NCBI GenBank assembly: GCA_963818475.1
Contig: CAWFSF010000006.1
Location: 2,144,001 to 2,208,000, forward strand
DNA: 64,000 nt
DNA from: Nitrospirota bacterium
GTDB lineage: Bacteria > Nitrospirota > UBA9217
Reading direction: 5' to 3'
The notes under the pieces were generated by a model, which was given only the letters and a program-made list of their open reading frames with translations, searched no databases and was not told the origin of the DNA. Positions 630 to 63,274 of this stretch are shown here, piece after piece. Position 1 is the stretch's first letter; each line of letters starts with the position of its first letter. The translations under genes were made by a program, and so were the position numbers.

Positions 630-2364
630 ATGAAAACCATCGAAACCTACGCAGATCGTCCCTGGACCCGGTCCTATGAACCGGGAGTGCTCCCCTCGCT
701 CACCTATCCCGACAGCACGCTGGGAAACGTCCTCGCGCAAACCGCACAGAAATTCCCCGACCACACCGCGCTCCTTTTCTTCGGGAAAAAGATCTCCTAT
801 GGCGAACTGGACAAACAGGTAGACCGGTTCGCCCAGGCGCTCATCGGGCTGGGGATCCGCAAGGGCGATCGGGTGGCGATCATGCTCCCGAACATCCCGC
901 AGATGGTCATTGCCTACTACGGCACGCTCAGATCCGGGGCCGTCGCCGTCCCGACCAACCCCCTCTACCACGAACACGAGCTGGAGGTCCAGCTGAAGGA
1001 CAGCGGGGCCGAAACGCTGGTGGCCGTTGATATGTTCTTTCCTGTTATTAAGAATGTTCTGAACAAGACGGGCGTCAAGAACCTCATCCTCTGCGGCATC
1101 AAGGACTATCTGCCCTTCCCGCTGAACCTCCTCTATCCGGTGAAAGCGAAGATCGAGAAGCAGTGGGTGAGCGTAAAACGGGTGCCGCCGATCTACGATT
1201 TTGTGTCCCTGCTCAGCCAAGCCCCATCGACGCCGGTAAAAGCGGATATTTCACCCGACGATACGGCGCTCCTGCAGTATACCGGAGGTACGACCGGGGT
1301 GCCCAAGGGCGCGATCCTGACCCACCGGAACCTGGTGACGAACGCGGCGCAGAGCAGAGCATGGCTCACGCTCCGGAACGAGGGCGAAGAGCGGATCCTC
1401 TGCGTCATCCCCTTCTTCCATGTATACGGCATGACCACGGCCATGAACCTGGGCGTGCTCATCGGCGCCGAGCTGATCCTCCTCCCCAAGTTCCATACCA
1501 AAGAAGTGCTCCAGATGATCAACAAGCACCGGCCCACGATCTTCCCGGGGATCCAGGCCATGTACCTTGCCATCGGGAATTATCGACAGCATCAGCAAGT
1601 ACGACCTCACCTCCATAAAAGCGGCGATCAGCGGCGCCGGACCGCTCATGCGCGAGGTGCAGGACCGGTTCGAACAGCTGACCAAAGCGAGGATCGTCGA
1701 GGGCTATGGCCTGTCCGAGGCATCGCCGGTGACCCATGCCAATCCCATTTTCGGCAAGAGGAAGCTCGGCACCATCGGAGTGCCCTGGCCCGATGTCGAG
1801 GCGCGGATCGTGGACATCGAGACCGGCGAGAAGGAGCTGCCCGTGGGTGAGGCGGGCGAACTCGTGGTCAAGGGCCCGCAGGTGATGAAGGGCTACTGGA
1901 ACAAGCCGGAGGAAACGGCCCAGGCGCTCCGGGGCGGCTGGCTCCACACCGGAGATATCGCGAAAATGGACGAGGACGGATACTTTATGATCGTGGACCG
2001 CATCAAGGACATGATCAAGACCGTGGGCGAGAATGTCTACCCCCGTGAGGTGGAGGAAGTGCTCTTCACCCATCCCAAGGTAAAGGATGCCGTGGTCGTC
2101 GGGATCCCGCAGGAGTTCCTGGGGGAGGAGATCAAGGCATATATCGTTTTAAAAGAAGGAGTGACCGCAACTGCCGCTGAGATCATCCAGTTCTGCCGTG
2201 AGCAGCTGTCGAAGTTCAAAGTGCCGAAAGAGGTCGAGTTCCGCAAAGAACTGCCCAAGACCCTGGTCGGCAAGGTGCTCAGGCGCGTGCTCAGGGATGA
2301 GGAAATGAAAAAGATCGATCCAAAACAGGGTTGGACACGGATAAGATCGGAAGGGTCAGATTAA
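630..2364 (+). CDS. fadD: long-chain fatty acid--CoA ligase (frameshift near 1580)
   Basis: AMP-binding motif [11 protein letters not shown], then [17 protein letters not shown] and PKTLVGK across ORFs 627..1850 and 1567..2364; SD GGAGG before ATG 630. Confidence 0.9.
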
Positions 2365-2420
2365 CTTCAACAGTCGTGGATCCAAGGACTTATCCGTCTT
2401 TCCCGTGTCAATCCGTGTCC
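2333..2420. repeat. palindromic element, GACACGGAT-type periodic arms
   Basis: GGACACGGAT (2333-2342) and ATCCGTGTCC (2411-2420) form a perfect IR with degenerate internal units; overlaps the last codons of fadD. Confidence 0.75.
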
Positions 2421-2439
2421 CATGAATTAGGGAGTTCAC

Positions 2440-3724
2440 ATGAAAGAAGTTGTCATCATAGACGGGTTCCGCACACCCTATGCCAAAGCAGGCACGGTCT
2501 TCAAGGACGTGCACCCCGTTGACCTCGGTGCAGCCGTGGTCAAGGAGGTCGTCAGCGCGGACCGGCATCAATAAGGACCTCATCGATGAGGTGATCGTGG
2601 GCAATGCGGGTATGCCCGCGGATGCCGCGAACATCGCCCGGGTGATCGCGCTCCGTGCTGGCCTTCCCGAGCGCATTCCCGCATACAGCGTGCAGCGCAA
2701 CTGCGCTTCGGGCATGCAGGCGGCGGCGAGCGCCTATACGCAGATCCTGGCGAATATGACGGATATCGCCGTGGTTGCAGGCGTCGAGTCCATGTCCAGT
2801 TTCGATTTCTATATAAAGAAGAAACTGCGCGATGTCATTACGTCCGTGCAGCGGGCAAAGAGCATTGCTGCCGGTACCCGGGCAGTCCTCTCACTCAGGC
2901 CAGGGGACTTTGTGCCGGTTGTCGGACTGGTTTCGGGTCTCACCGACCCTGTTTCCGGCCTCAACATGGGACAGACCGCCGAGGTGCTCGTCCGGGACTT
3001 CGGCATCACGCGTCGCGAGCAGGACGAATTCGCGCTCTTGAGCCATCAGCGCTGGACCGCGGCGAACGAGGCCGGCAAGTTCAGGAACGAGATCGTGCCG
3101 TTCTATGTGCCGCCAAAGTTCGAAGCCGTGGAAGAGGACATCGGGCCGCGCAAGAACCAGACCCTGGAAGCGCTGGCAAAGCTGCCGCCCTATTTTGACC
3201 GGGCGTCCGGCACGGTCACGGCCGGCAATTCTTCGCCGATCACCGACGGTGCCGCCGCAGCGCTGATCATGAGCGCGGACCGGGCAAAAATGCTGGGGTA
3301 CAAGCCGCTCGGCACTATCAGGGCCGTGGCCTTTGCCGGGCTCGATCCGTCGCGCATGGGCCTGGGGCCGGTCTTTGCCACGCACAAGGCGCTCAAGATC
3401 GCAGGCATGGCAATGAAGGACATCGAGCTCATCGAGTTCAACGAGGCCTTTGCCGCCCAGGTCTATGCCTGCGAAAAGGCCGCGGTGTCGAAGGAGTTCT
3501 TCAAAAAACACCTTCCCGGCGAGGAGCCCTTTGGCGAGTTCCGGCGCGATATCATGAACGTGAACGGCGGGGCCATCGCCATCGGCCACCCCGTGGGATC
3601 GTCGGGCATCAGGATCGTGATCACGCTCCTGAAAGAGATGGAGCGGCGCGGCCTGTCCACCGGCCTTGCCACCCTGTGCATCGGCGGCGGACAGGGCGGA
3701 GCGATGATCGTGGAGAGAAAATAA
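2440..3724 (+). CDS. acetyl-CoA C-acyltransferase (thiolase, FadA/FadI-like; frameshift near 2555)
   Basis: True N-terminus MKEVVIIDGFRTPYAK from ATG 2440; motifs RNCASG, NEAF, GHPVGSSG, CIGGGQG. Confidence 0.9.
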
Positions 3725-3817
3725 TGCAAAATGCAAAGTTCAAATTGCAAAGCTCAAGTTTAAACTCCTTTGCCACATCACTTCCCATTTTGCATTTTGC
3801 ACTTTACACTTTGAACT
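3723..3817. repeat. palindromic element with 7-nt periodic arms (AATGCAA type)
   Basis: AATGCAA AATGCAA AGTTCAA ATTGCAA AGCTCAA ... TTGCATT TTGCACT TTACACT TTGAACT. Confidence 0.8.
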
Positions 3818-3828
3818 GAGGTAATCCC

Positions 3829-5992: not shown

Positions 5993-6066
5993 AAAAATGA
6001 CCTAACCCCATTAGGCGTTAGGTGTCCAAGGGAAATAAAGGTCACAGAGATTCAGATGCAGTTGGG

Positions 6067-7836
6067 TCAGTATTTGCCGGGATCAAGTTCGTGGGCTTTT
6101 TTGAAGTATGTAGAACTCTGTTCAGTCAGATTTTTCCGCTGAAATACTTCACCAAGAAGGAAATAAACCTCAGCCTCATCTGGAATATAGCGAAGAGCAA
6201 TATTTAAATTTTCTATCGCCGCGTCAGGCATCCCCTTCAGGTAAAGACCCTTGCCGATGTTGTAGTACAGAATGCCGGTGTCAATATTGTCAAAGCGATT
6301 TGATTTCACCGTGATCATCAATTCATTCAGCCCCTCGTCAATTCTGCCTGTCTGGATATATGCAGTCCCAAGGTTCGAGCGTGCTTCCGCATACGAGCTA
6401 TCCACATCGAGGGCTTTTCTGAAATAGTATATCGCTTCATATATTCTGGAGTTCTCCAGATAATAAATACCAACCATGTTATATCCCCTCGGGTTAAGGG
6501 GCTTTTTGACAATTGCATCACTCCAGAGAGTCAACTCTTCCTTCCAGACCTTGTTTCGTGCATAGGCTGCATACGAGAGAGCAATGACTGTGATGGCAAG
6601 GATGCAGGCCGCGGCTTTCCGCAAGTGCCTGCGAGTCAATGCCGTTTTCTCCAGCGCATGAACAAACGCGGCCGTGACAGCAATAATTGCTCCGACGCTC
6701 GGCAGATATAATCTATGCTCAAACATGACATCGATTAACGGAATGATACTGGATTCAATGGATAGTGTTACAAAAAACCAGAGAATACCGAACGATACGA
6801 GTCGCAAATACGAGCGCGCACCGCGCGAGACCTTGAGCAGATACCATGCCGAACATACCAGCAGTGCAATTGCCACCAGCGACGCGATGACAGCGGGTTC
6901 AAAGACATTACTGTAAACCTTGTAATGATGGTCTATTGTCTGGTTGACCGGGAAAAACAGCAGCCGTATATAGGTGACAATGACCCTAAATTGAGTAACC
7001 AGGTAATCATGTCGCGTAATTTCGTTGGTGTCCTTGAATTTTTCAAATAGACCAGGCAGATCATGGGTAGTGATGACGAATACAAAAAAAGCCAGTACCA
7101 AGCCTGACAGGAAAACAACAATACGCCAATGTTTCCTGAAAGTTGTGAGTAAGCGTGACAAGCCGCTAATGAACATTGCCTCATACATGACTGCGACAAT
7201 GGGCAGCGTATATGCGTTTTCTTTGATTTTCAGACTTACGAGCGCTGACAAGCCTGCGATAAAATACAGCAGTATCGCTGCCCGATGAGACCATAATCTG
7301 TGGGGTGGTGCGGTAGAGTCCCTGTTTTTGACAATCAGCCTGGCCAGGATATAAAAATCAAGCGACAGCATGAAAAACAACGCAGCCAATGATGCAAATC
7401 TCTGCACTATGTAGGTAACCGCCTGTGTTTGAACCGGGTGCGTAACAAACAAGAGAGCGCACGCAAAAGCAAGCCATCCGTCAGAAATGAGCGCACCCTT
7501 GCGACCGCTGAAATAAGGTGTTCTGAGAGTGAGGAGAACAAAGAAATAAACGGACAATGCGGTGAAAATGTGAATCCCTGTGTTCACAAGATGGTATCCA
7601 ACCGGGTTTAAGCCGCCAGCCATATAATTCAGCGCAAATGTCAGAAATCCGAACCAGCGTGCACCTTCTGGTGGCCACAGGTTCCCGATATCCCGGATTA
7701 AAGGATTGTCTACGATGTTTAACTTGTCATCAAACTGGAACGAGGCCGTCAGGGTATTCGAGTAGATCAATGCACCTAGTACGGAAATAATGACGAGATG
7801 GCATACTGTTGCAGCGTTGCGTTTGAAGTTATTCAC
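6067..7836 (-). CDS. TMTC-like GT-C membrane protein with C-terminal TPRs (putative protein O-mannosyltransferase-like)
   Basis: FQFDD first loop, HPVQTQAVTYIVQR, EHRLYLPS, RNKVW, many TM helices, TPR repeats. Confidence 0.8.
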   Translation of the reverse strand: MNNFKRNAATVCHLVIISVLGALIYSNTLTASFQFDDKLNIVDNPLIRDIGNLWPPEGARWFGFLTFALNYMAGGLNPVGYHLVNTGIHIFTALSVYFFVLLTLRTPYFSGRKGALISDGWLAFACALLFVTHPVQTQAVTYIVQRFASLAALFFMLSLDFYILARLIVKNRDSTAPPHRLWSHRAAILLYFIAGLSALVSLKIKENAYTLPIVAVMYEAMFISGLSRLLTTFRKHWRIVVFLSGLVLAFFVFVITTHDLPGLFEKFKDTNEITRHDYLVTQFRVIVTYIRLLFFPVNQTIDHHYKVYSNVFEPAVIASLVAIALLVCSAWYLLKVSRGARSYLRLVSFGILWFFVTLSIESSIIPLIDVMFEHRLYLPSVGAIIAVTAAFVHALEKTALTRRHLRKAAACILAITVIALSYAAYARNKVWKEELTLWSDAIVKKPLNPRGYNMVGIYYLENSRIYEAIYYFRKALDVDSSYAEARSNLGTAYIQTGRIDEGLNELMITVKSNRFDNIDTGILYYNIGKGLYLKGMPDAAIENLNIALRYIPDEAEVYFLLGEVFQRKNLTEQSSTYFKKAHELDPGKY

Positions 7837-8369
7837 AGGTCATATCACTCACGAGCAGCGTAGCCGTGGAACCGCACAAAATAAGTAGCCACGTCACAAA
7901 TCATAACCAATTGATGTACTTGGCACCTAATAGGGCTCTATTCAGCCAGTGGTCGCATCTATTGACGAAGGTTAGGCGTTTAGAATTGTCTCTCGAACCC
8001 GGTCGTCTTGAATACGGCTTTTTTAACGTTGCCCCGATAGGTGATGTGGTACACTCCTAGGCATTCAATGCAAAGTGGGCGTACCATGCGTGAATTTATC
8101 GGAAGTATAGACAAAAGTCAAGCAGTACAGACCCATGTGTAGCACCCCATGAAAACCGACCCTCCTCCCATCAACGGGAATTCATCCTCCCCCTCACATA
8201 AACCTGCATATTCGTTGATTCGCCATTCAAATACTTAATGCTGATACAGTAGATGGAAAACATGCCACCGATCTTGCGTCAGCAGTTCACACGTATAGTC
8301 AATCCGAAGTGACTGGCCTGGAAGCGGCCCTCGCTGGGAAGTCAGAGAATCTAAAAAGGGGGTACTACA

Positions 8370-8558
8370 ATGCGTAAAGCACTAATGATTTTAAGCATCA
8401 TGACAGCTGCCTCACTTTTCAGCACAACGGCTTTTGCATCAGTGAACGACGATCAGGTCACATCACAAAAGATCAGGGAAGCCGACGGGACCAGCGGCCA
8501 AGACACGAATAGCGGTAGCGGAGTAAAGACGGGGCACATTCAGGAAAAAGAGGCGTGA
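8370..8558 (+). pseudogene. truncated secreted protein (signal peptide plus start of a low-complexity domain)
   Basis: SD AAAGGGGG; signal peptide MRKALMILSIMTAASLFSTTAFA; ends abruptly about 50 bp before the IS. Confidence 0.5.
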
Positions 8559-8605
8559 TCGTTGTTTTGCCTCAGTCGGAAATGGACTTTTAAGCTGTTT
8601 GAGTG

Positions 8606-10015
8606 TGTACTCCCAAAATGATAATGTCCTATTCTCCCAAAGTAGAAATGTCCTATTCTAAGTTACAATACCCTGATGTAATTGGAGGGTACTGTGACAG
8701 AAATGGACATGATCACTATGAGCAGGAGAGAAACAAAAAGACTGCACATTATCCACCAAGCATTGGATAAAAGGATCACGCAGAAGACAGCTGCTGAACT
8801 TGTAGGCTTGAGCAGCAGGCAGATTCGACGGATACTCAAACGAGTACGGAAGGAGGGAGACGACGGCATCAGTCACCGATCCCGCGGCAAAACCTCGAAT
8901 CGTCGATTCCCTCAGAAGGCAAAAGACAAGGCACTCAAGCTGTATCGGGAGAAATACAGTGATTTTGGCCCCACCTTTGCCTGCGAGAAGCTTCTTGATG
9001 TTCATGAAATCAAGCTAAGCGACGAAACCCTCCGTCTATGGCTTAATCAGGAAAGCATCCCTTACGAGAAGCGCAAGGGTAGAAAGCACCGGCAATGGCG
9101 CGAGAGGAAGCATCATTTTGGTGAAATGCTCCAGATGGATGGCTCCCATCATGCCTGGTTCGAAGGCCGGGGTCCTGAGAGCGTATTAATGGGATATATC
9201 GATGATGCCACAGGAACGGTGTATGGGCGCTTTTATGATTATGAGGGGACCATGCCAGCCATGGATAGCTTCAAGCGGTATATCAAGCGCTACGGCATTC
9301 CACAGAGTGTCTATTTGGACAAGCACTCAACGTATAAATCCAATGCCAAGCAGAGCATCGAGGATGAGTTGGAAGATAGAAAACCCATGAGCCAGTTCGA
9401 AAGGAGTCTAACCGAACTCGGGGTAACGGTCATCCATGCGAATTCACCCCAGGCAAAAGGCAGGATAGAAAGAAGTTTTCGAACGCTCCAGGATCGATTG
9501 GTTAAAGAGATGAGGCTTGCCAGGGTAAACAGTGTTGTGCAGGCAAACGAATTCCTGATAAAGTATCATCCAATATACAATGCGAAATTCAAGGTAAAAC
9601 CCGTTTCTGCAGCCGATGTACACCAACGCGCGCTATCCATAAGGGAACTCGACAAGATCTTCTGCATTCGAGAGGAGCGTACGCTACGGAACGATTTCAC
9701 CATAGCTTATAATGGCAAACTGTACCAGATCAAAGACGCTATAAAGACTCAAAAGGTCGCAGTGGAAGAACGACTCGATGGATCTCTGCATATCACTCAC
9801 AGGGGCTTGGAATTAACATATCGGGAGATCAAAACACGGCCAGCGAAAGAAAACCCTAAAACACCGGCAGTCAATAAGAAACCGACAAGTCGGTATCAAC
9901 CATCAGATCATCCATGGAAGAGACTCCGCAGAGCAAATGTACAATTTCCAATTGCTTCCTAAAAGCGGACATTTCTATCTTGGTAAGAGTAGGACATTTC
10001 TACTTTGGGTTGACA
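8606..10015 (+). mobile_element. IS1202-family (ISNCY-annotated) insertion sequence, 1410 bp, 16-bp target duplication
   Basis: Left end TGTACTCCCAAAATGATAATGTCCTA; right end (rc) TGTCAACCCAAAGTAGAAATGTCCTA; each end has a second internal copy; TTAAGCTGTTTGAGTG duplicated at 8590-8605 and 10016-10031. Confidence 0.9.
8694..9962 (+). CDS. DDE transposase (IS1202/ISNCY type)
   Basis: N-terminal HTH; QMDGS, YIDDATG, YLDKHS, PQAKGRIERSFRTLQDRL; GGAGG before GTG 8694. Confidence 0.92.
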   Translation: MTEMDMITMSRRETKRLHIIHQALDKRITQKTAAELVGLSSRQIRRILKRVRKEGDDGISHRSRGKTSNRRFPQKAKDKALKLYREKYSDFGPTFACEKLLDVHEIKLSDETLRLWLNQESIPYEKRKGRKHRQWRERKHHFGEMLQMDGSHHAWFEGRGPESVLMGYIDDATGTVYGRFYDYEGTMPAMDSFKRYIKRYGIPQSVYLDKHSTYKSNAKQSIEDELEDRKPMSQFERSLTELGVTVIHANSPQAKGRIERSFRTLQDRLVKEMRLARVNSVVQANEFLIKYHPIYNAKFKVKPVSAADVHQRALSIRELDKIFCIREERTLRNDFTIAYNGKLYQIKDAIKTQKVAVEERLDGSLHITHRGLELTYREIKTRPAKENPKTPAVNKKPTSRYQPSDHPWKRLRRANVQFPIAS

Positions 10016-12888: not shown

Positions 12889-13023
12889 TTGATGGACTCG
12901 CAATAATTCGGATTTTAACCGCGGAGACGCTGAGACGCAGAGAAAGTCTTTAATATTTCAAGGTGCCTTCCTCTGCGCCTCCGCGTCTCGGCGGTGGATA
13001 ATGACTTTTTACGAATGTATCAA
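12889..13023. repeat. nested palindromic element (9-nt CGCGGAGA-type arms inside an outer TTGATG..CGCAA / TTACGAA..TCAA IR)
   Basis: AACCGCGGAGACGCTGAGACGCAGAG ... CTCTGCGCCTCCGCGTCTCGGCGGT. Confidence 0.8.
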
Positions 13024-14223: not shown

Positions 14224-15327
14224 ATGCGCAAAGCATCCTTGATCCGTACAGCCTGTGACGCAAAGCATATCGCAGAACTCGAAGCGCTCCGTCAGCACCG
14301 GTCATCAGGCGGGAAAGTGGCGGGATATACCTGCCATGCGTTCCCGGCCGCGGTCCTTGCCGGACTGGGCCTGTGGCCTGCACGCATCCTCTGCGACTCC
14401 TCGGCTGACGCTGAAAGCGCAGGCGAAAAGGTGGTCCGACCGGACGTCTGTCCCCTGGTCAAGACCCTGCTCGGGAACGTTGCGGAAAAGCGAGGGCTCC
14501 ATGCCCAGGTGGACCTTTGGATCGGCCTTTCGACCTGCGACCAGATGCGCCGGGGCATGCACAGCCTTTCCGAACATCTTGCCTGCGAAGTGCACCCCAT
14601 CCAACTCCCCGCGACCCGAACACCGGAATCGGCAGACTACTACGTTGATCAGGTAAAGCGGGTTGCGGCAGACATCGAAACGCGCCACGGGCTGAGCTTT
14701 GACGCGAACGCAGCAGAACAATGGCATCGGGACCGTTACAAAGCAGCAGCAGTTCTCTCCCTGGCTGCCCGGTCAGGCAGGGTATCTCCACTCGATTTGC
14801 ACAACATGTTCCATGTCTTCTTCATGGCCCGGCCGAAAGGGCTGGCAGAATTCTTTTCCGGGCTGATCGCATCATCCAGGCCGTTTGAGGGAACAAAGAC
14901 CGTGGTACTCAGCGGCGGACCGCTCACTCGTGAGGACACAGCGCTACTCGAAGAGCTGGAAGAACGGGGCTATACCGTGCTTCCGCTCAACTGCACCGGT
15001 TTGAACGCCGTAGAGAGCGAAGGTCAAACGCGGGCGGGCAAAAATCTGATCGAATCGCTGGCCCTTGCAGCCTTTGGCATGCCAACCTGCACCAGGTCGC
15101 GGCCGAATACTGCTGTCTACACCCGGATCGGTGAGACGCTCAAAACATCGGGAGCAACCGGCCTGATCGTCAAGACCCTCAAGTTCTGCGACCACTGGTA
15201 CACGGAGCGCGAACGGCTGCGCAGGTCCTTTGGCGTGCCGGTGCTGGTCTTTGACTCGGATTACGCAGAAGGCGGACGGGAACGGATCTTGAGCAGGATC
15301 GATGCGTTTCTGGAAACACTGGAGTAA
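14224..15327 (+). CDS. 2-hydroxyacyl-CoA dehydratase family Fe-S subunit (HgdB/BzdN-like)
   Basis: GYTCHAFP, VCPLVK, STCDQMRR, KFCDHW, DSDY..RILSRIDAFLE. Confidence 0.8.
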   Translation: MRKASLIRTACDAKHIAELEALRQHRSSGGKVAGYTCHAFPAAVLAGLGLWPARILCDSSADAESAGEKVVRPDVCPLVKTLLGNVAEKRGLHAQVDLWIGLSTCDQMRRGMHSLSEHLACEVHPIQLPATRTPESADYYVDQVKRVAADIETRHGLSFDANAAEQWHRDRYKAAAVLSLAARSGRVSPLDLHNMFHVFFMARPKGLAEFFSGLIASSRPFEGTKTVVLSGGPLTREDTALLEELEERGYTVLPLNCTGLNAVESEGQTRAGKNLIESLALAAFGMPTCTRSRPNTAVYTRIGETLKTSGATGLIVKTLKFCDHWYTERERLRRSFGVPVLVFDSDYAEGGRERILSRIDAFLETLE

Positions 15328-15335
15328 AAACAGTT

Positions 15336-15532
15336 AACCACGGAGTCACGGAGGCACGGAGGAAAGCTGAGAGAATCAAAAGCTTTAAGCTTTTGTTTTA
15401 AAACCAAGGCTAAGGCTCTTGACCCTCTCAGCCTCAACGCCGTTCTCCGTGCCTCCGTGTCTCCGTGGTGAAAAAGGTTTGCGTTTGTTCAGGGTTTTGA
15501 TCTTCTCTGTGTCTCTGTGCCTCTGTGGTGAA
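15336..15532. repeat. palindromic element with 9-nt CACGGAG arms plus an extra right arm
   Basis: ACCACGGAGTCACGGAGGCACGGAG ... CTCCGTGCCTCCGTGTCTCCGTGGT and CTCTGTGTCTCTGTGCCTCTGTGGTGAA. Confidence 0.85.
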
Positions 15533-15539
15533 GGCCTTT

Positions 15540-18140: not shown

Positions 18141-18148
18141 GGACATTT

Positions 18149-18315
18149 TTCACGCGGAGACGCGGAGTTTGCGGAGACAAGCAACGCATTTACCTCACGC
18201 AAAGATCGCTCTGAAAGTTAAGTCATTTGATTCTAAGGCCAGCGCCTAATGTTTCCTTTGCGAGAGGCCGCTTTTAATATCTTTTTTCTCCGCGTCCTCC
18301 GCGCCTCCGCGAGAG
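18149..18315. repeat. nested palindromic element, 9-nt CGCGGAG arms
   Basis: CACGCGGAGACGCGGAGTTTGCGGAG ... CTCCGCGTCCTCCGCGCCTCCGCGAGAG, with inner CTCACGCAAAG/CTTTGCGAGAG. Confidence 0.8.
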
Positions 18316-18334
18316 ACAGCTTTGAGGTTAAATC

Positions 18335-21990: not shown

Positions 21991-23576
<1,586 letters not shown>

Positions 23577-23648
23577 GATCGTACAAGAGGAAAACAAGCG
23601 GGAAGGTATTTTCTTCTGAACCAGATCATACGTATTTAGTCGAGTCTT

Positions 23649-23678
23649 TCTCCGTGTCTCCGTGCCTCCGTGGTGAAA
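23649..23678. repeat. solo right arm of the 9-nt CACGGAG element
   Basis: CTCCGTGTCTCCGTGCCTCCGTGGTGAAA, near-identical to 15445-15472. Confidence 0.75.
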
Positions 23679-23689
23679 GTTAAGGTTTT

Positions 23690-26828: not shown

Positions 26829-26830
26829 TG

Positions 26831-26996
26831 GGCCGCAGATAAAATCCGATAAACGCGGATAAAAACAAAAACCAGAAGCAACTGTTTTTTCCAGGTCAAC
26901 ATATTGTCCGCAGATTTCACAGATTTCACAGATTAAAATCTGAAATAACCCGGAATTTATTTTTAAAATCTGCGGCCATCTGCGAAATCTGCGGAA
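26831..26996. repeat. palindromic element with 9-10-nt CGCAGAT arms plus an extra left arm
   Basis: CCGCAGATTTCACAGATTTCACAGAT ... ATCTGCGGCCATCTGCGAAATCTGCGG; upstream GGCCGCAGATAAAATCCGATAAACGCGGAT. Confidence 0.82.
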
Positions 26997-27027
26997 AAAA
27001 GCGTTTTGCCTTCTGCAGTTTTTAAGT

Positions 27028-27669: not shown

Positions 27670-27697
27670 GTCTTCTCCTTTCCCGGGGAAAAACAAA

Positions 27698-36997: not shown

Positions 36998-37078
36998 ATT
37001 GCGGATTTCGGATTGCGGATTTCGGATTAAAATCTTTTGACCCGAAAAATCCGCAATCCGAAATCCGCAATCCGAAAT
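36998..37078. repeat. palindromic element with 7-nt periodic arms (ATTGCGG/ATTTCGG)
   Basis: ATTGCGG ATTTCGG ATTGCGG ATTTCGG ... AATCCGC AATCCGA AATCCGC AATCCGA. Confidence 0.88.
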
Positions 37079-39033: not shown

Positions 39034-39110
39034 GGACAAATCCTACGGAGTGGCGGTCAATAAGTCAATACCTTTATCCTAACCCGGACAAGCCGGAACC
39101 AAAAAGCCTT

Positions 39111-39295
39111 TTCACCACGAAGGGCACGAAGATCACGAAAAAGTTGAAAAAGACAAAATCAAAATATTGATTTTAACTTCGCGCGCTTCGTGTTCTTCGT
39201 GGTAAACTTTCTTGCCATTTTGAGAAAAATTTTATTCTTTAGTTACTAAAAGGACAGTTGGCCGCAGATATACGCAGATTTTCTCAGATAAAATC
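39111..39295. repeat. palindromic element with 9-nt CACGAA arms plus a solo CGCAGAT arm
   Basis: ACCACGAAGGGCACGAAGATCACGAA ... TTCGCGCGCTTCGTGTTCTTCGTGGT; GGCCGCAGATATACGCAGATTTTCTCAGAT. Confidence 0.8.
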
Positions 39296-39339: not shown

Positions 39340-39359
39340 AAGAAAGATCGGGATCGGGT

Positions 39360-43971: not shown

Positions 43972-43974
43972 TGT

Positions 43975-44295
43975 TTACTCCTGAACTTTGACAATATTCG
44001 CTATCGCCGGCCAATCCTTCCCCTTGGGCATGACAAACAGGCATTTGCCGTTGCTCTTGTACATCCAATTCTCGTTACCGGTGTTGTAGGGAGGATCGAT
44101 ATAAATGCATTTGACTTTTCCAGCGTAATACGGCAGGAGCGCTTTGAGGGCAAGGAGATTGTCACCCTGGACGAGCAGGTTTCCAGCGTCAGGATCGCCA
44201 GCGGACAGGCCGTTGTCGCACCGCAGCAACCGGTACGGCACTTCCCGGTGGTGGTTGACTACAGCTTTCTTTCCGATCCAATCAAGCGTGGGCAT
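43975..44295 (-). pseudogene. type III R-M remnant: Mod N-terminus fused to a probable Res C-terminus
   Basis: MPTLDWIGK..NLLVQGDNLLALKAL..CIYIDPPYNTGNENW, then abruptly SNGKCLFVMPKGKDW; FxGxG motif absent. Confidence 0.7.
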
Positions 44296-44450
44296 AAATT
44301 CCGTTGGTCATTTGAGGGATTAACTTGAGATTGAAAAATAACGTACTATAACCGGTGGGAAATGTAAAGGGGATTTGAAAATATATGATCTATAAAAAGA
44401 CCTTGCCCAAAGTCCATGACTTTTAACGTCTACCGAGCCAGCGGATTCGA

Positions 44451-49300: not shown

Positions 49301-51020
49301 GCCAAAGCGCGTAATCATCAGCGAGGCTAGCTGTTTCAATGCAGCCAAGTGCCTTTGAAGCAAAAATTAATTTTTCAAATAGTTCTTGAGCTCTTCTTCG
49401 AGCTTTAAGTGATGCTTCATCTGACGCAAGTGGGAAATTCTTTGGATTAAACGGTATTTGTTGTAAAAGAATAGACCTTATTTCATCAGGAACAGCCTTT
49501 ACCAAATGGGTGACAGCTGCAATCTGGTAAAGGACAGGGGCATCTTGGTAATCTTTTTCCTTGAGCTCGGCAACATATTCTAGGGCGGTATCCCAGTGAT
49601 CAAGTTCGAAAAGTTGAGTTAATTGACGAAATTTACCATCTGGATCAAGGTCAGAAAAAGCTATCCCTGACTTCGATAACCATTCAAGCGCGGATGAAGG
49701 ATCCTTCTTGTGGTTGGTTACAATAAAAAATGCGGCGGACTTGGCAGTAGCTGATGATAAGATCGCAAGTTTACTCAAAGCTCCTTCTAAGTTGCCCTTG
49801 GCAGAAATTATAAATGCTTCTGCTAGCATTATTTCTTGACCAGTGCCCAGCCGCTTTGCTGTTTCCAATAGTTCGTCTGCTTTAGTGCTATTGTCACCAA
49901 CAGCCAAAAGGCGGGCACACCATGCCAAAACCCTACTCTTGATCTCATCAGAGCCGCCCTCGAATTCGCCACTCTGAATTTTTTCTGCCAAGCGAAGTGA
50001 ATGATCAGCATAAGAGAATTCTCGGAAAAAGCGAGCACGTCGTATTACTGATAGTCGCTCTATAATTTCACCATCTACCAAATCTTTCGGATATTTCTTG
50101 TTAAATAGGGGCGGTGATATTGGACCCATGGCGCGGATGCGTTCCGCGATACTTTCAGCTGTTTTTTCGCTTTGATCTATTACTGTTTGCTTCAATGATG
50201 AAATTGCTTCACCCTGAGTTCTTAAAAGACTTTCTATTTCAGGCTCGCGGCGCGCTGTTTTCAGCTCCCTTTGGATGAATTCGCGAATATGCTTATATAT
50301 TTCTGATGACTGATCTATCGGTTTGCATATAGTGATATGATTAGCATCAACTGGGATTGGATGTGCTCGCAGGCCGGGATTACTACTGTCAGGCTTTACT
50401 ACCAGAAAAAATTTCTTATAAGGTTGCGTTTCAGTTAAGTTTAGATGCTCAATACGACGTCTATCCGACCAATCTTGGTACCATGTGTTCAATTTATGTA
50501 GGTTAGGATCGTTTCGTACAAGACTTGCTGTTGTCGCTGACGGCATACAGAATATGCGGAGGCGGTCGGCTAATGTTGATAGGCCCGAACCGAAATGCGG
50601 TGTGGCGAGGAAGCCAACGCGATGTACATTCTTTAAAAACCCAGCAACATTATCACGTTGATATGACGCCATCTCTGCATCGAGTAAGAGCTGTTTGATA
50701 ACAAGGCCCCCAAAGCTGTGGCCAATGAGAATTATTTCCCCAGTCTTTAGCTTTGGCTCAAGGAGAAGAAGTTCCAGCACGTTTGTTGCGCGATCAGTCA
50801 AATGCATGGCGGAGCCTCGCCAACGCGAGACTGATGCTCTGTATCCGACTGTCCACACTGCTAATCCTTCAATATCGTTGGCCAGCCATTGGAGCAACCC
50901 TTCTTGAGATTCAGGCGCAGACTGCCAAGTTTTGAATGGGTCGCCACCAAGCCCATGGAGAAAAATGGCGTGCTTAGTTACGTCACCATGAACATCTGTA
51001 ATTTGAAATAAGTCTGCCAA
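46365..51020 (-). CDS. 1551-aa alpha/beta-hydrolase - TPR-like - tandem PIN-like protein (putative anti-phage effector)
   Basis: FLHGLGG, GHSFGG, FLATPHFGS, DANHITICKP (SERAC1/PGAP1-like); long helical repeats; PIN-like MEATSLLTL..IVIPHST and LYLDSLSV..VYIS..IIDDR. Confidence 0.7.
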   Translation of the reverse strand: MADLFQITDVHGDVTKHAIFLHGLGGDPFKTWQSAPESQEGLLQWLANDIEGLAVWTVGYRASVSRWRGSAMHLTDRATNVLELLLLEPKLKTGEIILIGHSFGGLVIKQLLLDAEMASYQRDNVAGFLKNVHRVGFLATPHFGSGLSTLADRLRIFCMPSATTASLVRNDPNLHKLNTWYQDWSDRRRIEHLNLTETQPYKKFFLVVKPDSSNPGLRAHPIPVDANHITICKPIDQSSEIYKHIREFIQRELKTARREPEIESLLRTQGEAISSLKQTVIDQSEKTAESIAERIRAMGPISPPLFNKKYPKDLVDGEIIERLSVIRRARFFREFSYADHSLRLAEKIQSGEFEGGSDEIKSRVLAWCARLLAVGDNSTKADELLETAKRLGTGQEIMLAEAFIISAKGNLEGALSKLAILSSATAKSAAFFIVTNHKKDPSSALEWLSKSGIAFSDLDPDGKFRQLTQLFELDHWDTALEYVAELKEKDYQDAPVLYQIAAVTHLVKAVPDEIRSILLQQIPFNPKNFPLASDEASLKARRRAQELFEKLIFASKALGCIETASLADDYALWLELRDPDSTKSGLQKLQSSMNDPTLSLRRLPLALDFGLKIDIEAVEKEIERQTALSGGESRVAALARFSLAFTQKGPKAIAEYVNRHRAQLQKYLTKQSINSLEIEMLVKAGMPQRAEERLMVLVAEGLSDAEHDKLRRFIAESAEIDPIEAQKIAFEGSRNFIDLQHLVRLLEEQPEEQKDWSQFCNYSALLFEKTRALLDAERISKALNAAHRFAELLALLKKYPEFLDQSDDLLMLWSWALYREGDLAGSAAALGKLQVKRDNPNDRTLTVNLAITSGAWGSLLPYVEKEWQNREQREANELIQTAKLAQHVRSPHAKELIRFAANKGAEDPQILAAAYFTAMSAGWEDETTTQWLNKAAELSGANGPIQRMSIKDIMDRKPAWDRRENDTWQQVNQGALPIFVAGQLLNRSLIDMILLPALANPTEPDLRKRVIIPAYSGARSPLPCTCRVAAMEATSLLTLSVLGLLEKVFDAFDRIVIPHSTLRWLFEEKQKASFHQPSKIQDARKLRQLLAGGALREFRATVPMDADLSAEVGEDLAFLLAEAKVEGDKRQKVVVRSAPVHRVSSLMAEEADLSSFYSLICSCSSIVDKLKQKSQLTAFEEQRARSYLSLHEKKWPNEPVINDNAVLYLDSLSVTYLQHTGLLSKLKPAGLEVYISTRELEEVNGVLQYEQLSSEVNKIIENLRSSLALGIEQGRVKVGRMPQMDDSEEPRLHDHPTFAIYDLIADVEALIIDDRYFNQYQQYKTNESSDEQIPLLTTLDLIDALQKKERGTISLDELREYRTRLRQSGYLFIPVTFDELQQYLSTAQVADNVLEETAELKAIRENLLRIRMSHFLQLPKEAAWFNGLMQAIIRTLKAQWMSALDEKTMQARSGWLLQLIDVRGWAHFFGNERCLRIFIDIYGAHIMLLLTAPHNATTDIKNKYLNWIEEHVLTGIREEDSVLYARLLDGAKELIANFVERGLRRLSNSEH

Positions 51021-51057
51021 TTAACAGCTCCGCAGCCCTAATGGGACAGCTTTAACA

Positions 51058-51406
51058 TTAAACACAGCTTATAATATTTTGTGCCTGTCCGGTTGTTTCA
51101 GGTAGTGGGCAATATTCGCTTTCGGACCGTAGCTCAAGACTGAATGAAATCCTTATATAATTTATCCCATGTATCGCAGTGGCTGAAATAGCAGTTCCTG
51201 CGGCAAGCGAATGCGCCAGTGCCCTATGATGAGGGTTATTTGCCGGCTCAAATACATCAGGCAACCTGCTTCCCCAGTAACCACCGAACAAAGCACCAAT
51301 TCCTTCATAAATTTGGGTGCTCTGGCTTTTGATCTTTCGACAGATATAATGATGCAACCAGTGCGGTACCCATGCCAACTGGAACGTGTACGTCTCTATT
51401 TGGCAT
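51058..51406 (-). pseudogene. truncated YdjM-like metal-dependent membrane hydrolase
   Basis: SD AAGGAGG, MPNRDVH start, frameshift, GSRLPDVFEP..HHRALAHS; the C-terminal His..Asp motif is missing. Confidence 0.55.
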
Positions 51407-51745
51407 GAAGCCTCCTTTTGCCAAACGAACCGATAGCGCAATATTCGGAAAACGCTCGATTGACACTACTTTTTGGCTTTAAATTTAACATGCACTGGCT
51501 CCTTAACCATTTTTTTTGCCATGAAGTCAACTGGCGTCCCCTTTTTTGGTTGTGAAATCGACTTCGACTTCGCGTTTCACTTTTTTATGCGCATCAAATT
51601 CAACCGTTTTCTTTTTTAGGTGTCGTCATGTTTTTGACCTCAACTTTCATTCTTTAATCTTTGACAGTACCGTCGACCTAAATGAATGGCTTTATTGTGC
51701 TGAAATCTGCCGACGACTACGCCGGGGTAATGGTCGCCGCGATTG

Positions 51746-52276
51746 TTACTTTCCTGAAGAATAAATGAACTCTTCCCGCCCTGTGGCCAAATTGGACTGA
51801 AAATATTCCTCACTCAGCCTTGGGTCGAGTTTATGGCCGGGAGATAACGTGAGCCCCGAGGTTTGTAAAAGCCGTTCCGCGGAGATTACGCTTTCGCTTG
51901 CGTCGAGAAAAGGCACGGCCCTGATGGCCGCCGCGTCGAAGGTGCAGATTGTCAGCAACTCCTCTTGCAGGAGGATGGCGAGCGACTCTATTTCACCCGC
52001 ATGAATAGCGTCCCTCTTCAGCGCCGGGAGCCTGCGCAGAACTTCCTGCATGTCCTCTGCGGATGACGTTATTTCCGTGATCTTCCCGGAGTCAATATAA
52101 ACCTTCCGGAAATCCACTTGGATCTTCTGTCTGCTTTTTTTGTAGTACTTGACTTCACTCACTACCGTCGAGGCAACGTGGACCTTGTGCTGTTTCGCCA
52201 GGCTGTCCAAAACGCCGAGTTCCAGCAGCTTTATCGTAACATCGGCGTCAAGCAGCCACAATTTCAACGGATTCAC
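51746..52276 (-). CDS. PIN-domain protein (putative toxin)
   Basis: LLDADV, STVVSEV, HAGEIESLA, CTFD acidic PIN core; overlaps the upstream gene. Confidence 0.75.
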   Translation of the reverse strand: MNPLKLWLLDADVTIKLLELGVLDSLAKQHKVHVASTVVSEVKYYKKSRQKIQVDFRKVYIDSGKITEITSSAEDMQEVLRRLPALKRDAIHAGEIESLAILLQEELLTICTFDAAAIRAVPFLDASESVISAERLLQTSGLTLSPGHKLDPRLSEEYFQSNLATGREEFIYSSGK

Positions 52277-56479: not shown

Positions 56480-56671
56480 TTGGACACGGAAGAAGCGGAT
56501 GAACTGCGGATAAAGGCGGATAAATCGACATCATCCTCTCCCCTTGCGGGAGAGGACTGAGGTGAGGTGGCCAGGTTTACAACAAATTCAATTTAACCGC
56601 AGAGACGCGGAGGCGCAGAGGAAATCCTCATTATTTTATTGTCTTTCTCGGCGTCTCCGCGTCTCGGCGGT
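56480..56671. repeat. compound cluster of three different palindromic element types
   Basis: GGACACGGAAGAAGCGGAT..GCGGAT..GCGGAT arm; CCTCTCCCCTTGCGGGAGAGG; AACCGCAGAGACGCGGAGGCGCAGAG ... CTCGGCGTCTCCGCGTCTCGGCGGT. Confidence 0.82.
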
Positions 56672-56681
56672 GGATTATGTT

Positions 56682-59321: not shown

Positions 59322-59422
59322 CTTTGACACGGATAACGGCGGATTAAATTATGAAAAAGCAGGATAATGCCTGGCCGTATCCGCCCTTATCATAGCTTTT
59401 ATCCGCTTCTTCCGTGTCAAAG
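59322..59422. repeat. palindromic element, GACACGGA type
   Basis: CTTTGACACGGA ... TCCGTGTCAAAG with internal GCGGAT/ATCCGC units. Confidence 0.82.
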
Positions 59423-59882: not shown

Positions 59883-59907
59883 TATACCCCCAGACAATCA
59901 AAACCAT

Positions 59908-60014
59908 TTTTGCCACGAAGGCACGAAGACACTAAGAGAACATTAGACTAAATGTTTAATAAAAACCAGAATCATGATCCGGCATTTTTTCGGCCTTCGT
60001 GCCTTCGTGGCAAA
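59908..60014. repeat. palindromic element, CACGAAG arms
   Basis: TTTGCCACGAAGGCACGAAG ... CTTCGTGCCTTCGTGGCAAA, a 20-bp perfect IR. Confidence 0.88.
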
Positions 60015-60043
60015 GCCATTGTTTTCATTTTGCTTCTAAAAAC

Positions 60044-62382: not shown

Positions 62383-62416
62383 CTTTTTTCCGTCCTTTTT
62401 ACTCTAAAAACAGCAT

Positions 62417-62600
62417 TTGGGACACGGAAGCGGCGGATATTAACACCGGATAAAATCGGATAAACCTCAAGGTCACACATTCACCAATGGGGTTGAACCA
62501 CTTGTCAAACAAAGGATCCGCCGTTATCCGACTCTTATCCGATGTTATCCGTGTCAAAGGTTTTTTGGTTTACCTGTCCCTGTCCTCTGTCCTCTACCTT
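62417..62600. repeat. GACACGGA-type palindromic element plus a 7-nt CTGTCCT arm
   Basis: GGGACACGGAAGCGGCGGAT..CCGGAT..CGGAT ... ATCCG x4 ending ATCCGTGTCAAA; CCTGTCCCTGTCCTCTGTCCTCT. Confidence 0.78.
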
Positions 62601-62611
62601 ATAAACCTGCC

Positions 62612-63088
62612 CTACTCTACCACCCAGACAGCGCAGTTTTTTGCTTCGTGGACAAGCCGGTTCGAGGTGCTGCCGAAGAGGAACTCCTCGGTCTTGGTTT
62701 TGTGGTGGCGGCCCACGACAACCGTGCAGCACGTAAGATCGCAGCGGATCGCAAGGATGGCGTCAGACAGCGACTTTGCATCTCCCACGCAGGTGTGAAA
62801 GCGCACCTTGTCCTCGGGAAATCCGGATTGGATCAGGATCGTCCGGTAATGCTCCAGCAGTTTATTTGCTTTGGCGATCTTTTCCTCGACCCACGCCTTC
62901 AGTTCCGTCTCGGTCTCGTAAAAATCCTGTTCCGGTTCGGGTATGATGCTCAGGAGCGTGACCGTGAAACCGGGGAACCCTCCGAGAAAATCAGCCACGT
63001 ACAGCACGGCACGGCGCGAGCTGTCCGACTCGTCCACCGCAACAAGGAGATGTTTGTCTTTTATGGGACTCTCAGGCTGGGTGTCCAT
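62612..63088 (-). CDS. universal stress protein
   Basis: LLVAVDES, VVVGR, FLFGSTS, AVWVVE. Confidence 0.9.
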   Translation of the reverse strand: MDTQPESPIKDKHLLVAVDESDSSRRAVLYVADFLGGFPGFTVTLLSIIPEPEQDFYETETELKAWVEEKIAKANKLLEHYRTILIQSGFPEDKVRFHTCVGDAKSLSDAILAIRCDLTCCTVVVGRHHKTKTEEFLFGSTSNRLVHEAKNCAVWVVE

Positions 63089-63132
63089 ACAAGGCTCCTT
63101 TCATTTTACAACAGTTCAAAATAGAACAAACT

Positions 63133-63274
63133 TTCGCGCAGAGACGCTGAGGCGCAGAGAAAGATCTAAATCTTTTTTAATTTTTTTTCTCTGCGGCACT
63201 GCGGCTCTGCGCGAGACGCCTTGCCTTTTTGTTCCGCATTTCGAATTCCGCATTCCGAACTCCAGACTCCGAAC
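63133..63274. repeat. 9-nt CGCAGAG palindromic element plus a 7-nt TTCCGCA arm
   Basis: TCGCGCAGAGACGCTGAGGCGCAGAG ... CTCTGCGGCACTGCGGCTCTGCGCGA; TTCCGCA TTTCGAA TTCCGCA TTCCGAA. Confidence 0.82.

Follow-up and report, generated by a model that had tools for sequence, protein, structure and literature searches.

What are the periodic palindromes that recur between the genes of a Nitrospirota bacterium, and what puts or keeps them there? The question is raised by a 64,000-nt stretch of its genome (assembly GCA_963818475.1, contig CAWFSF010000006.1, positions 2,144,001 to 2,208,000; hereafter the window), in which many spacers hold a hairpin whose arms each consist of 2-5 head-to-tail copies of a short unit, inverted around a loop. 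An earlier reading of the letters of this stretch (the sequence-only reading) had counted about 15 such copies, had treated them as one superfamily with 9-nt units, and had proposed that similar arms flank stand-alone GxxExxY genes of the PD-(D/E)xK type. In the genome from which the window comes (G000, 4.66 Mb, with C1, C2, C3 and C6 among its contigs and C6 the largest) arms of this kind bracket two families of small genes, and it is probable that the window hairpins are gene-less members or partners of two classes of small palindromic selfish cassettes.

Periodic arms bracket two families of small genes

Arms were searched for inverted partners 300-6000 nt off, and in the window genome pairs 420-510 nt apart were found that enclose one small gene. 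Genes of the GxxExxY family (PF13366, i.e. PDDEXK_3, and TIGR04256) lie between unpaired arms 300-600 nt from each other at C2:99466-99867 and C6:314326-314718; the family match reaches 145.6 bits for TIGR04256 (cut-off 35) and up to 140.7 bits for PF13366. Genes of a second family (PF05635 and TIGR02436) lie between such arms at C3:7564-8007, C6:1993635-1994045 and C6:1705732-1706160, and encode four-helix-bundle proteins that belong to the '23S rRNA intervening sequence protein' family and weakly resemble Avd, a protein of diversity-generating retroelements. Gene-containing versions, for which the sequence-only reading had advised a search, thus exist elsewhere in the genome, and the window copies themselves carry no gene, as it had said. 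The proposed link to GxxExxY genes proved real and strong. The single superfamily stands only as a common architecture of periodic arms, since there are two classes with different partner genes: arms of class 1 go with GxxExxY genes and arms of heptamers with four-helix-bundle genes. Likewise, the C-R-C-R-(G/A)-A core that had been proposed for all copies holds for the class with periods of 8-10 nt but not for the heptamer class, whose units are unrelated.

About 11 PDDEXK_3 loci were counted in the genome, several being broken or partial (those at C1:224363-224712, C6:988588-988931 and C2:711910 lie between or beside arms), and a strict periodicity scan found arms on both sides of 4/11 and on one side of 3/11. 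For larger sets, the 220 nt upstream of the conserved domain were compared with the reverse complement of the 220 nt downstream, a score of at least 16 counting as a pass. In the bacterial family of the window (f1), 85 of the 96 PDDEXK_3 loci passed, a set without a shuffle control of its own, for which the control maxima of the same procedure on two other sets (13 and 15) have to serve. The arms at GxxExxY genes, almost always of 2-3 CRCNRAN units, stop 2-30 nt short of the domain.

The association extends to other lineages. In five genomes, namely metagenome-assembled genomes (MAGs) labelled Geobacter, Desulfuromonadales, 'Deltaproteobacteria', Thermoguttaceae and Pirellulales, arms were recognised by eye at 7 of the 14 testable PDDEXK_3 loci, including the only Thermoguttaceae locus and all four that the Geobacter MAG has. 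The order to which the Geobacter MAG belongs was sampled with 29 further genomes, and there 25/29 loci passed the inverted-repeat test (shuffled control maximum 15); 16/29 have at least two strict core motifs in both arms, and three loci carry the window's own CACGGAG arms. As a separate observation, L085 6164-6396 (Thermoguttaceae MAG) and L051 380-488 contain arrays of CGGAGAC/CGGGGAC octamers, CTGACTT heptamers and a CTTACTA/AAGTAGT inverted pair, which means that such arrays occur well outside the phylum of the window.

The four-helix-bundle genes behave in the same way. Five good loci were found in the window genome, four with arms on both sides (three by the strict scan, one via wider pairing) and one with an arm on one side, and in the family 22/29 loci passed the inverted-repeat test (control maximum 13). 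Their arms are nearly all heptamers of very varied sequence, with a few octamers. The commonest heptamer hairpin family is GCGGATT, which includes window hairpin 36998-37078, and the left arm of this hairpin is identical to the first 31 nt of the 32-nt arm at the four-helix-bundle gene C6:1993635-1994045. Within 170 nt of a gene, arms are 18 and 12 times as dense as in the distal flanks for the two gene families, by a method that undercounts. In addition, PF13366 and PF05635 are absent together from the same 10 of 41 family genomes.

In 53 diverse GxxExxY sequences residues G32, G34, E37, E87, K89 and N118 are invariant, while D77, Q101 and Y105 are conserved in at least 90%, and the AlphaFold model has a predicted local distance difference test (pLDDT) score of 94.3. 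The best Foldseek matches of this model are Cas4, lambda exonuclease, MGME1, LHK-Exo and Hjc resolvases, all with E-values above 0.001, so that the modelled likeness to Cas4, lambda exonuclease or Hjc is a statement about fold class only; a sequence search found no solved relative. With these residues and this predicted fold, GxxExxY is very likely an active PD-(D/E)xK nuclease, in a family that a catalogue of PD-(D/E)xK families (PMC3424549) lists, in its entry for PDDEXK_3, as of unknown function. The four-helix-bundle protein matches structures 2gsc and 2rld, five chains each, of which 2gsc is XCC0516, the solved four-helix-bundle protein of X. campestris; S23p of this species is reported to be a homopentameric toroid (cited in PMC4990558). 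Genes of both families tend to be oriented like their neighbours (GxxExxY 25/29 upstream and 22/30 downstream, four-helix bundle 19/27 and 17/28), which for GxxExxY is suggestive of read-through expression, but the rate is close to the general co-directionality of 80%.

Arm dialects follow protein clades

The arms come in sequence dialects, and the sequence-only reading had supposed that these co-evolve with paralogues of a binding protein. On a maximum-likelihood tree of 95 GxxExxY proteins (84 rows labelled, 18 dialect states) the arm dialect requires 27 changes, the minimum possible being 17, against 54-65 (mean 60.3) in 300 label shuffles, and the unit period requires 11 changes against at least 29. 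Clades that span several genomes include those of CACGAAG with period 8, CGCAAAG, CACGGAG/CACAGAG, and a period-10 group ending in GAT. Arm dialect and protein clade are therefore inherited together, as had been supposed.

The dialects of the gene-less hairpins, too, mostly have a cognate gene resident in the same genome. In the window genome, resident genes with the same arms exist for CACGGAG, CACGAAG (periods 8 and 9), CGCGGAG, CGCGAAT, CGCAAAG and CACGGAT, although two of these genes are broken. The GACACTGA dialect has at least four matches in 9/41 family genomes, and in 8 of these 9 the matching 10-row clade is represented by a gene; in two genomes that have such a gene the dialect has no match. 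A looser CGCGAAT pattern is abundant in G000 and G003, where the cognate gene is present, and also in G001, G013, G012 and G041. The CACGGAG triple is present in 19/24 family genomes and, outside the family, in 1/16 genomes of the phylum, one whose control pattern also matches. In G038, of the same phylum and another family, more than 200 matches to the backwards control were seen and 19 to the CACGGAG pattern itself, mostly in CACAGAGG arrays, which points to another repeat that is abundant there.

The main rival explanation is that the small genes are passengers, the hairpins being spread by host recombination or repair or by an unidentified transposase, and the genes lodging harmlessly in the loops, as open reading frames do in 23S intervening sequences. 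This would suit the fact that one architecture is common to two unrelated protein families, one of them a four-helix bundle without nuclease or recombinase domain, as well as the existence of orphan dialects, of genomes with arms but no gene, and of loops that are unrelated to gene interiors. Random entry into ready-made hairpins, however, is not expected to produce dialects that track protein clades across genomes and phyla; furthermore, class 1 arms occur with GxxExxY and heptamers with four-helix bundles with almost no mixing, and neither Y1 (0/11 loci) nor IS110 (0/4 loci) transposases lie near such arms. On balance we consider passengers unlikely.

Census of the repeats and the putative unit of recognition

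A scan of the genome for periodic arms, likewise advised earlier, was made by short-period self-similarity and gave 493 tandem-arm candidates; in contig C6 there were 257, compared to 3 in an order-2 Markov simulation. The candidates merge into 415 arms, 215 of which have an inverted partner within 300 nt, yielding 170 hairpins with loops of 2-209 nt (median 44). Of these hairpins 91 are class 1 (8-10 nt, C-R-C-N-R-A-N), 64 are heptamer and 15 are other. Class 1 is made up of CACGGAG (25), CACGAAG (19 with period 8, 5 with period 9), CGCAGAT (9 with period 9, 1 with period 10), CGCGAAT (8), CGCAGAG (6 with period 8, 2 with period 9), CGCAAAG (6), CGCGGAG (4), CGCGGAT (4) and CACAGAG (2). The 25 CACGGAG hairpins have three units per arm and loops of 18-209 nt. 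In all 91 class-1 hairpins the purine-rich CRCNRAN strand forms the 5' arm, on both strands; the mirror arrangement is absent.

This constant polarity bears on the simplest explanation, that of plain slippage, in which long simple repeats of 7-10 nt would have come to lie in inverted pairs by chance. Heptamer repeats are indeed over-represented in many bacteria (cited in PMC4679880 and PMC4692102), but chance pairing does not sit well with a polarity fixed in 91/91 cases, with identical unit sequences recurring across phyla, with unit numbers that are small and stable, or with arms tightly tied to two gene families. Slippage is disfavoured and seems the least credible of the explanations considered here.

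Whether the motif or the stem is what matters was approached in 47 period-8 hairpins by comparing the likeness of paired and unpaired units between the arms. At the variable core position 4 it was 0.60 for paired and 0.63 for unpaired units, at the spacer positions 0.44 and 0.46, and in 11/47 hairpins the two arms differ in their majority unit. The complementarity of the arms is thus fully explained by both being arrays of one motif, with no extra selection for pairing seen. This favours motif recognition over a purely structural role, although the test is a soft one, as the copies are related by descent.

The census also brought up some larger or odder arrangements. Inverted CACGGAG arms bracket two genes at C6:62020-63834 (1763 nt) and three at C2:99887-104047 (4110 nt), all of ordinary size; either separate elements have come to stand next to each other by chance here, or these may be units of a larger kind. 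About 13 uninterrupted heptamers (CTTCTTA/CTTCTCA) stand at about C2:100849-100939 (L109 2875-2965), 1 kb from a CACGGAG-flanked GxxExxY gene, the usual arrays having 3-5 units.

Position, folding and turnover

Gene positions were taken from a crude home-made gene caller that covers 79% of the genome. By this measure 123 hairpins lie in co-directional gaps, 13 in convergent and 9 in divergent ones, while 25 overlap a gene call and are unreliable as 'genic' cases owing to the caller. The distribution (85/9/6%) differs little from that of all gaps (1566, 187 and 200, or 80/10/10%), and hairpins lie at a median of 25 nt past the upstream stop. Right flanks most often begin with AAA (23/165) and left flanks are T-rich; among the 165 hairpin flanks no T-run follows the periodic stems, unlike in intrinsic terminators.

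All 11 window hairpins that were folded as RNA are much more stable than dinucleotide shuffles (z -3.1 to -12.0); among 200 shuffles, one equalled one hairpin and none any of the other ten. In the 8-nt class the stems consist of runs of 5-7 pairs with single mismatches at the spacer positions.

The sites themselves turn over. Two of them are empty in relatives whose flanking genes are 82-87% identical: window 15317-15538 (hairpin plus solo arm, 222 nt) is an empty 32-nt spacer in G011 (downstream gene 83% identical in DNA, upstream gene 68-81%), and the 255-nt spacer at 26773-27028, with a solo arm and a hairpin, is 41 nt in G005, of the same genus. At the orthologue of 18140-18335, G011 has a hairpin of another dialect, and G042 has ATTCCGATG-type units in the spacer corresponding to 23565-23715. 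In metagenome contigs (runs X1 and X3) with flanks 93-94% identical, 18140-18321 is swapped for 105 other letters; contigs from four runs show the same arms elsewhere with different loops, besides this one replaced spacer, and no precise excision. Fixation at orthologous sites, named beforehand as a finding that would speak against mobile copies, is therefore not what is seen.

One solo arm also hints at an origin. Over 37 nt, the arm at 15491-15531 agrees letter for letter with a GxxExxY element of G014 that still carries its gene, in the inner flank and right arm of that element (by alignment, 40 nt at 98% identity), which fits with its being the decay product of a complete cassette. A target-site duplication, which the sequence-only reading had advised looking for, was not found: 146/165 hairpins have no direct repeat of at least 2 nt at the inverted-repeat boundary, compared to 147.5 in shuffled flanks.

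It could be argued that the hairpins are host structure elements in RNA or DNA, i.e. intercistronic stems kept by the host for mRNA stability, RNase III processing or attenuation, with the gene-bearing forms as a side issue. The strong predicted stems agree with this, as do the 123 of 145 intergenic copies in co-directional gaps at a median of 25 nt past the upstream stop, and RNase III cuts a comparable 28-bp stem in the 23S intervening sequence (PMC4990558). Yet close relatives have nothing, or a different dialect, at the orthologous sites, the hairpins are spread over gap types much as gaps generally are, variable positions show no preference for keeping the pairing, the stems are not followed by a T-run, and Rfam has no match in the window. 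Moreover, a stem needs neither internal periodicity nor fixed polarity. As the explanation of the hairpins a host structure is improbable, more so than passengers, though an RNA-structure role may coexist with either the selfish or the passenger reading.

Relation to described repeats

The sequence-only reading had named a match to a repeat family described before as something that would refute it, and for the architecture and the CACGGAG dialect there is such a match. Aklujkar et al. (2009; PMC2700814) describe, as 'predicted global regulator binding sites' in the genome of Geobacter metallireducens, class 1 sites of four GTTGCTYN, class 2 sites of three TCTCCGTS[Y] and class 3 sites of five MTYCTGA heptamers, each class occurring in opposite-strand pairs at variable distance; G. 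metallireducens has 21 pairs of class 2. The CACGGAG dialect is class 2 in reverse complement, and the definition of this class fits window hairpin 15334-15472 and the 25 hairpins genome-wide. The likeness is close (3-5 tandem units of 7-9 nt, opposite strands, variable distance, intergenic), whereas the Geobacter sites are described as nucleotide motifs only, with no gene link, and the window arms are tied to two gene families in another phylum (among named relatives, the one nearest to a window gene, with 82% amino-acid identity, is labelled a Nitrospirota MAG). The repeat architecture and the CACGGAG dialect are hence already in print and the partner genes of the arms are the new result; the prior description lowers the novelty of the repeat, not the reading given to it. 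Neither the descriptions of the Geobacter and Xanthomonas repeats nor that of TAACTGA name a partner gene, and in the excerpts of the literature on GxxExxY, PDDEXK_3 and intervening-sequence proteins that could be consulted no treatment of these repeats was found.

The authors of PMC2700814 guessed that integration host factor (IHF) or HU binds the Geobacter sites, and paired binding sites of such a host global regulator have to be considered here as well. That the motif rather than the pairing is conserved would agree with a DNA-binding protein of this kind, and in G. metallireducens insertion sequences of the IS110 family lie at a fixed distance from class 1 sites (PMC2700814). The hairpins, however, show no preference for divergent (promoter) gaps (9/145) and are not conserved at orthologous positions; the many dialects that coexist per genome match element-borne genes rather than host regulators, and the distribution, patchy within the bacterial family, follows the two small gene families. 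A host regulator is accordingly a very improbable explanation.

Repetitive extragenic palindromes (REPs) and their hairpin-forming pairs (REPINs) are short multicopy intergenic palindromes with one or a few cognate genes for a REP-associated tyrosine transposase (RAYT, a Y1 transposase), which are flanked by the repeats, each gene clade having its own repeat family. To our knowledge REPIN-RAYT systems leave no target duplication either. The parallel with the window elements is evident from the dispersed gene-less copies, the few arm-flanked genes and the clade-specific repeats, but here the partners are a PD-(D/E)xK nuclease or a four-helix bundle instead of an HUH/Y1 enzyme, and the arms are internally periodic. 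The earlier statement that the hairpins are not REPs of the GTAG type agrees with what was seen: the GTAG/CGTC tag, the subject of PMC3733652, was not noticed by eye in the arms, which begin with ACC, GCC or TCC followed by the unit (no formal scan was made), and no periodic arm of these classes lies within 1 kb of any of the 11 Y1 (PF01797) loci in the genome. None of the four IS110 loci is near such an arm either, and RAYT and IS110 were ruled out as partners for lack of association. The eleven Y1_Tnp loci are weak matches, their open frames measure 63-337 aa, the scores of several are almost the same, and they may belong to a multi-copy IS200/IS605-like or RAYT-like family with repeats of its own, unrelated to the periodic arms. 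CRISPR arrays, which the sequence-only reading had also dismissed, do not resemble these arrays of 2-5 contiguous units with 1-3-nt spacers in inverted arms.

For the four-helix-bundle class the nearest comparison is the 23S intervening sequence, described in PMC4990558 as a 28-bp stem around an S23p gene, within which RNase III cuts, sited in helix 25 or 45 of 23S rRNA and regarded as selfish and horizontally acquired. Terminal inverted repeats, a stem of about 28 bp and an enclosed four-helix-bundle (S23p) gene are common to both; the window elements, in contrast, lie in mRNA spacers, and arm periodicity and gene-less dispersed copies do not appear in the description in PMC4990558. The single 23S rRNA gene of the genome (C1:46444-49445, minus strand) has no gene-size insert, with 3002 nt against 2925 model positions. 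About 125 nt upstream of its 5' end, at C1:49569-49627, stands a hairpin with heptamer arms of AAAATTC units and a 3-nt loop.

Intergenic tandem heptamers are also known from cyanobacteria, in the short tandemly repeated repetitive (STRR) sequences. For Xanthomonas, Rehm et al. (2015; PMC4692102) give 70-75 convergent pairs of arrays of the heptamer GGGAATC, possibly forming stem-loops, besides heptamers in Nostoc, and MacGregor (2015; PMC4679880) reports TAACTGA heptamers of patchy distribution in Beggiatoaceae, cyanobacteria and Bacteroidetes. These resemble the heptamer arms in being intergenic, in tandem and phylogenetically patchy, and differ in that the accounts of the Xanthomonas and TAACTGA heptamers name no partner gene and take the repeats for signals of translation or for G-quadruplexes. 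As XCC0516 (2gsc) comes from X. campestris, the link between heptamers and gene is testable in Xanthomonas. Finally, the hairpins are similar to MITEs (transposable elements of miniature size with inverted repeats) in being short, gene-less and multicopy, with terminal inverted repeats common to a gene-bearing relative, and unlike them in having no target-site duplication, interiors unlike the gene-bearing form, and PF13366 and PF05635 as partners rather than a known transposase.

Probable selfish cassettes and their gene-less hairpins

If the hairpins belong to selfish cassettes, as we think probable, the complete form of class 1 would be a cassette of about 500 nt in which inverted arms of 2-4 tandem 8-11-nt units (core C-R-C-N-R-A-N) closely bracket the gene for a GxxExxY (PDDEXK_3) nuclease of ~125 aa, and that of class 2 would have arms of 3-8 tandem heptamers of very varied sequence around a ~120-aa four-helix-bundle gene of the S23p/Avd-like (23S-rRNA-intervening-sequence) family. 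The arms would act as arrays of recognition motifs for the cassette's own protein. This protein would spread or maintain both cassettes and, in trans, gene-less hairpins, much as RAYT does with REPINs, and the break would, in class 1, be the work of the nuclease. Within operon transcripts the arms would also pair into stems of 24-30 bp, of the kind excised by RNase III from 23S intervening sequences.

Several facts weigh against this reading. No clear inverted repeat was found at 11/96 PDDEXK_3 loci and 7/29 four-helix-bundle loci, and genomes G001 (only 65% complete) and G020 have many arms but no PDDEXK_3 match, just as the abundant CGCAGAT dialect with period 9 (9 hairpins) has no resident gene in the window genome. 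The agreement between clade and dialect is co-inheritance and not by itself recognition, since relatives share labels, and related genomes are non-independent samples. Class 2 cannot move by its own protein alone, as the four-helix bundle has no catalytic domain. Among empty and filled sites no pair was close enough to fix where the elements end, and a target duplication is absent. The loops, moreover, count against an origin by plain copy-and-paste or deletion: only 34/150 resemble another loop, there are few BLAST matches between gene-less loops and the interiors of gene-bearing cassettes, and for the inner flanks (24 nt) in 16 CACGAAG hairpins the scores were 3.1 and 3.9, the shuffled means being 2.8 and 3.4.

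The derivation of hairpins from cassettes by internal deletion was considered in this connection and not borne out, shuffle-controlled alignment and BLAST of the loops giving no support, although old copies may have arisen in this way. Judged by eye, CACGAAG hairpins seemed to hold a ribosome-binding site and start codon at their loop ends, which alignment against shuffles did not support.

A broader proposal would unite the periodic hairpins and the GxxExxY and four-helix-bundle genes as one widespread and so far unrecognised kind of mobile element, in which a small protein, either a Cas4/RecB-like nuclease or a pentameric nucleic-acid-binding toroid, would read arrays of 7-11-nt motifs at the cassette ends and propagate both cassette and hairpins. 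We put this forward tentatively, as possible but rather doubtful. If true, one mechanism would explain the 'global regulator sites' of Geobacter, the GGGAATC heptamers that stand inverted in Xanthomonas, the heptamer repeats of cyanobacteria and the protein-coding 23S rRNA intervening sequences, and there would be an additional REPIN-RAYT-like system, built on different enzymes. In bacteria, GxxExxY and the '23S rRNA intervening sequence protein' with its four-helix bundle are common families, present in several copies and lacking an assigned function, and for decades intergenic repeats of short period have gone unexplained in Geobacter, Xanthomonas, cyanobacteria and Beggiatoaceae; the link between them provides repeats and genes alike with a concrete, testable role, as a protein and its cis sites. 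For annotation, it matters that a genome can hold hundreds of such hairpins inside operons, which may be cut at the RNA level. The families could also be a source of small sequence-specific nucleic-acid-binding proteins, with the recognition motif beside each gene.

The hairpins and solo arms of the window

The window was read at all 15 sites listed earlier and scanned for repeats and periodicity. By sequence reading 14 of the 15 are real (9 hairpins and 5 solo arms), which also bears out that solo arms occur; the remaining one, a 'degenerate copy' at 27696-27754 (listed under 27698), is an imperfect inverted repeat without tandem units and was dropped. Three hairpins and two solo arms were added. 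The period is mostly not the 9 nt that had been claimed: it is 8 nt in eight features, 10 in six, 7 in three and 9-10 in two. The genes around the copies are ordinary housekeeping and catabolic ones, and most copies lie in same-strand gaps. Rfam gave no match anywhere in the window.

Among the period-8 features, the hairpin at 12917..12995 has CGCGGAG/CGCTGAG/CGCAGAG arms (12920-12943 and 12971-12993) and a stem (-43.3 kcal/mol, z -6.4) in which each break is a single mismatch at a spacer position. The most stable one, at 15334..15472 between two HGD-D dehydratase genes, has three CACGGAG units per arm (15338-15364 and 15444-15468) and a loop of 83 nt (-84.8 kcal/mol, z -12.0), and is followed by the newly added solo right arm of the CACAGAG dialect at 15491..15531, with an 'inner flank' of about 12 nt. 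The CGCGGAG hairpin at 18151..18311, known from sequence reading, has arms at 18151-18177 and 18287-18311 around a loop of about 109 nt with CGCAAAG-like remnants; within this loop (18190-18270) CACGCAAAG and CCTTTGCGAG stand in inverted order, and this pair may be the remnant of a nested element of the CGCAAAG dialect. The solo arm at 23647..23676, in the COX1/COX3 gap, has three CTCCGTG units in right-arm orientation. Two further hairpins, at 56594..56673 (CGCAGAG/CGCGGAG arms, -47.3 kcal/mol, z -7.6) and 63131..63217 (CGCAGAG/CGCTGAG arms, -46.3 kcal/mol, z -7.0), are of the same make. The last of this group, at 59906..60017 with GCCACGAAG arms (-44.0 kcal/mol, z -8.1), belongs to a genome-wide family of 17 hairpins labelled AAGACACG and has the same arms as the GxxExxY gene at C6:314326-314718.

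Longer units are found in the hairpin at 2331..2420, between the end of an AMP-binding gene and a thiolase gene, which has GGACACGGAT-type arms of period 10 (about 2333-2362 and 2390-2420; -31.7 kcal/mol, z -3.1) in a dialect that also occurs on the arms of the GxxExxY gene at C1:79210. The hairpin at 62417..62556, also of period 10, has 4-5 units per arm (GACACGGAA, GCGGAT, ACCGGAT, ATCGGAT; -47.3 kcal/mol, z -3.9). The newly added hairpin at 26904..26998, in a convergent gap, has CGCAGATTT/CACAGATTT arms of period 9 (-35.3 kcal/mol, z -7.6), and that at 39108..39209 has CACGAAG arms of period 9-10 (39111-39139 and 39178-39206; -38.8 kcal/mol, z -6.6). Sequence reading gave four solo arms of this group, at 26830..26860 (period 10; CGCAGAT, ATCCGAT and CGCGGAT), 39260..39289 (period 10; CGCAGAT units), 56480..56521 (period 10-11; GACACGGAA and GCGGAT units) and 59323..59344 (period 10; the two units GACACGGAT and GGCGGAT). 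Directly after the arm at 39260..39289, positions 39307-39340 hold a GC-rich hairpin followed by TTTT, which has the look of an intrinsic terminator and does not belong to the same kind as the periodic hairpins.

Heptamers form three newly added features, namely the hairpin at 3722..3817 in the gap between the thiolase and enoyl-CoA hydratase genes (AAAATGC/AAAGTGC arms; -19.7 kcal/mol, z -3.6), the hairpin at 36998..37078 between aminotransferase and prephenate dehydratase genes (ATTGCGG/ATTTCGG, four units per arm; -48.3 kcal/mol, z -8.7), and the solo arm read at 63231..63274 (TTCCGCA, TTCCGAA and CTCCGAA).

No catalogued periodic arm lies in the AT-rich stretches of the window at 6-10 kb and 43-52 kb, in agreement with the earlier observation that both islands are free of them. 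These stretches (6000-10000 and 43000-52000) have 45-47% G+C, compared to about 57% elsewhere, and a codon-based gene caller mostly fails in them, as expected for foreign DNA. An open reading frame of 1551 aa lies within low-G+C sequence, at 46365-51020 on the minus strand.

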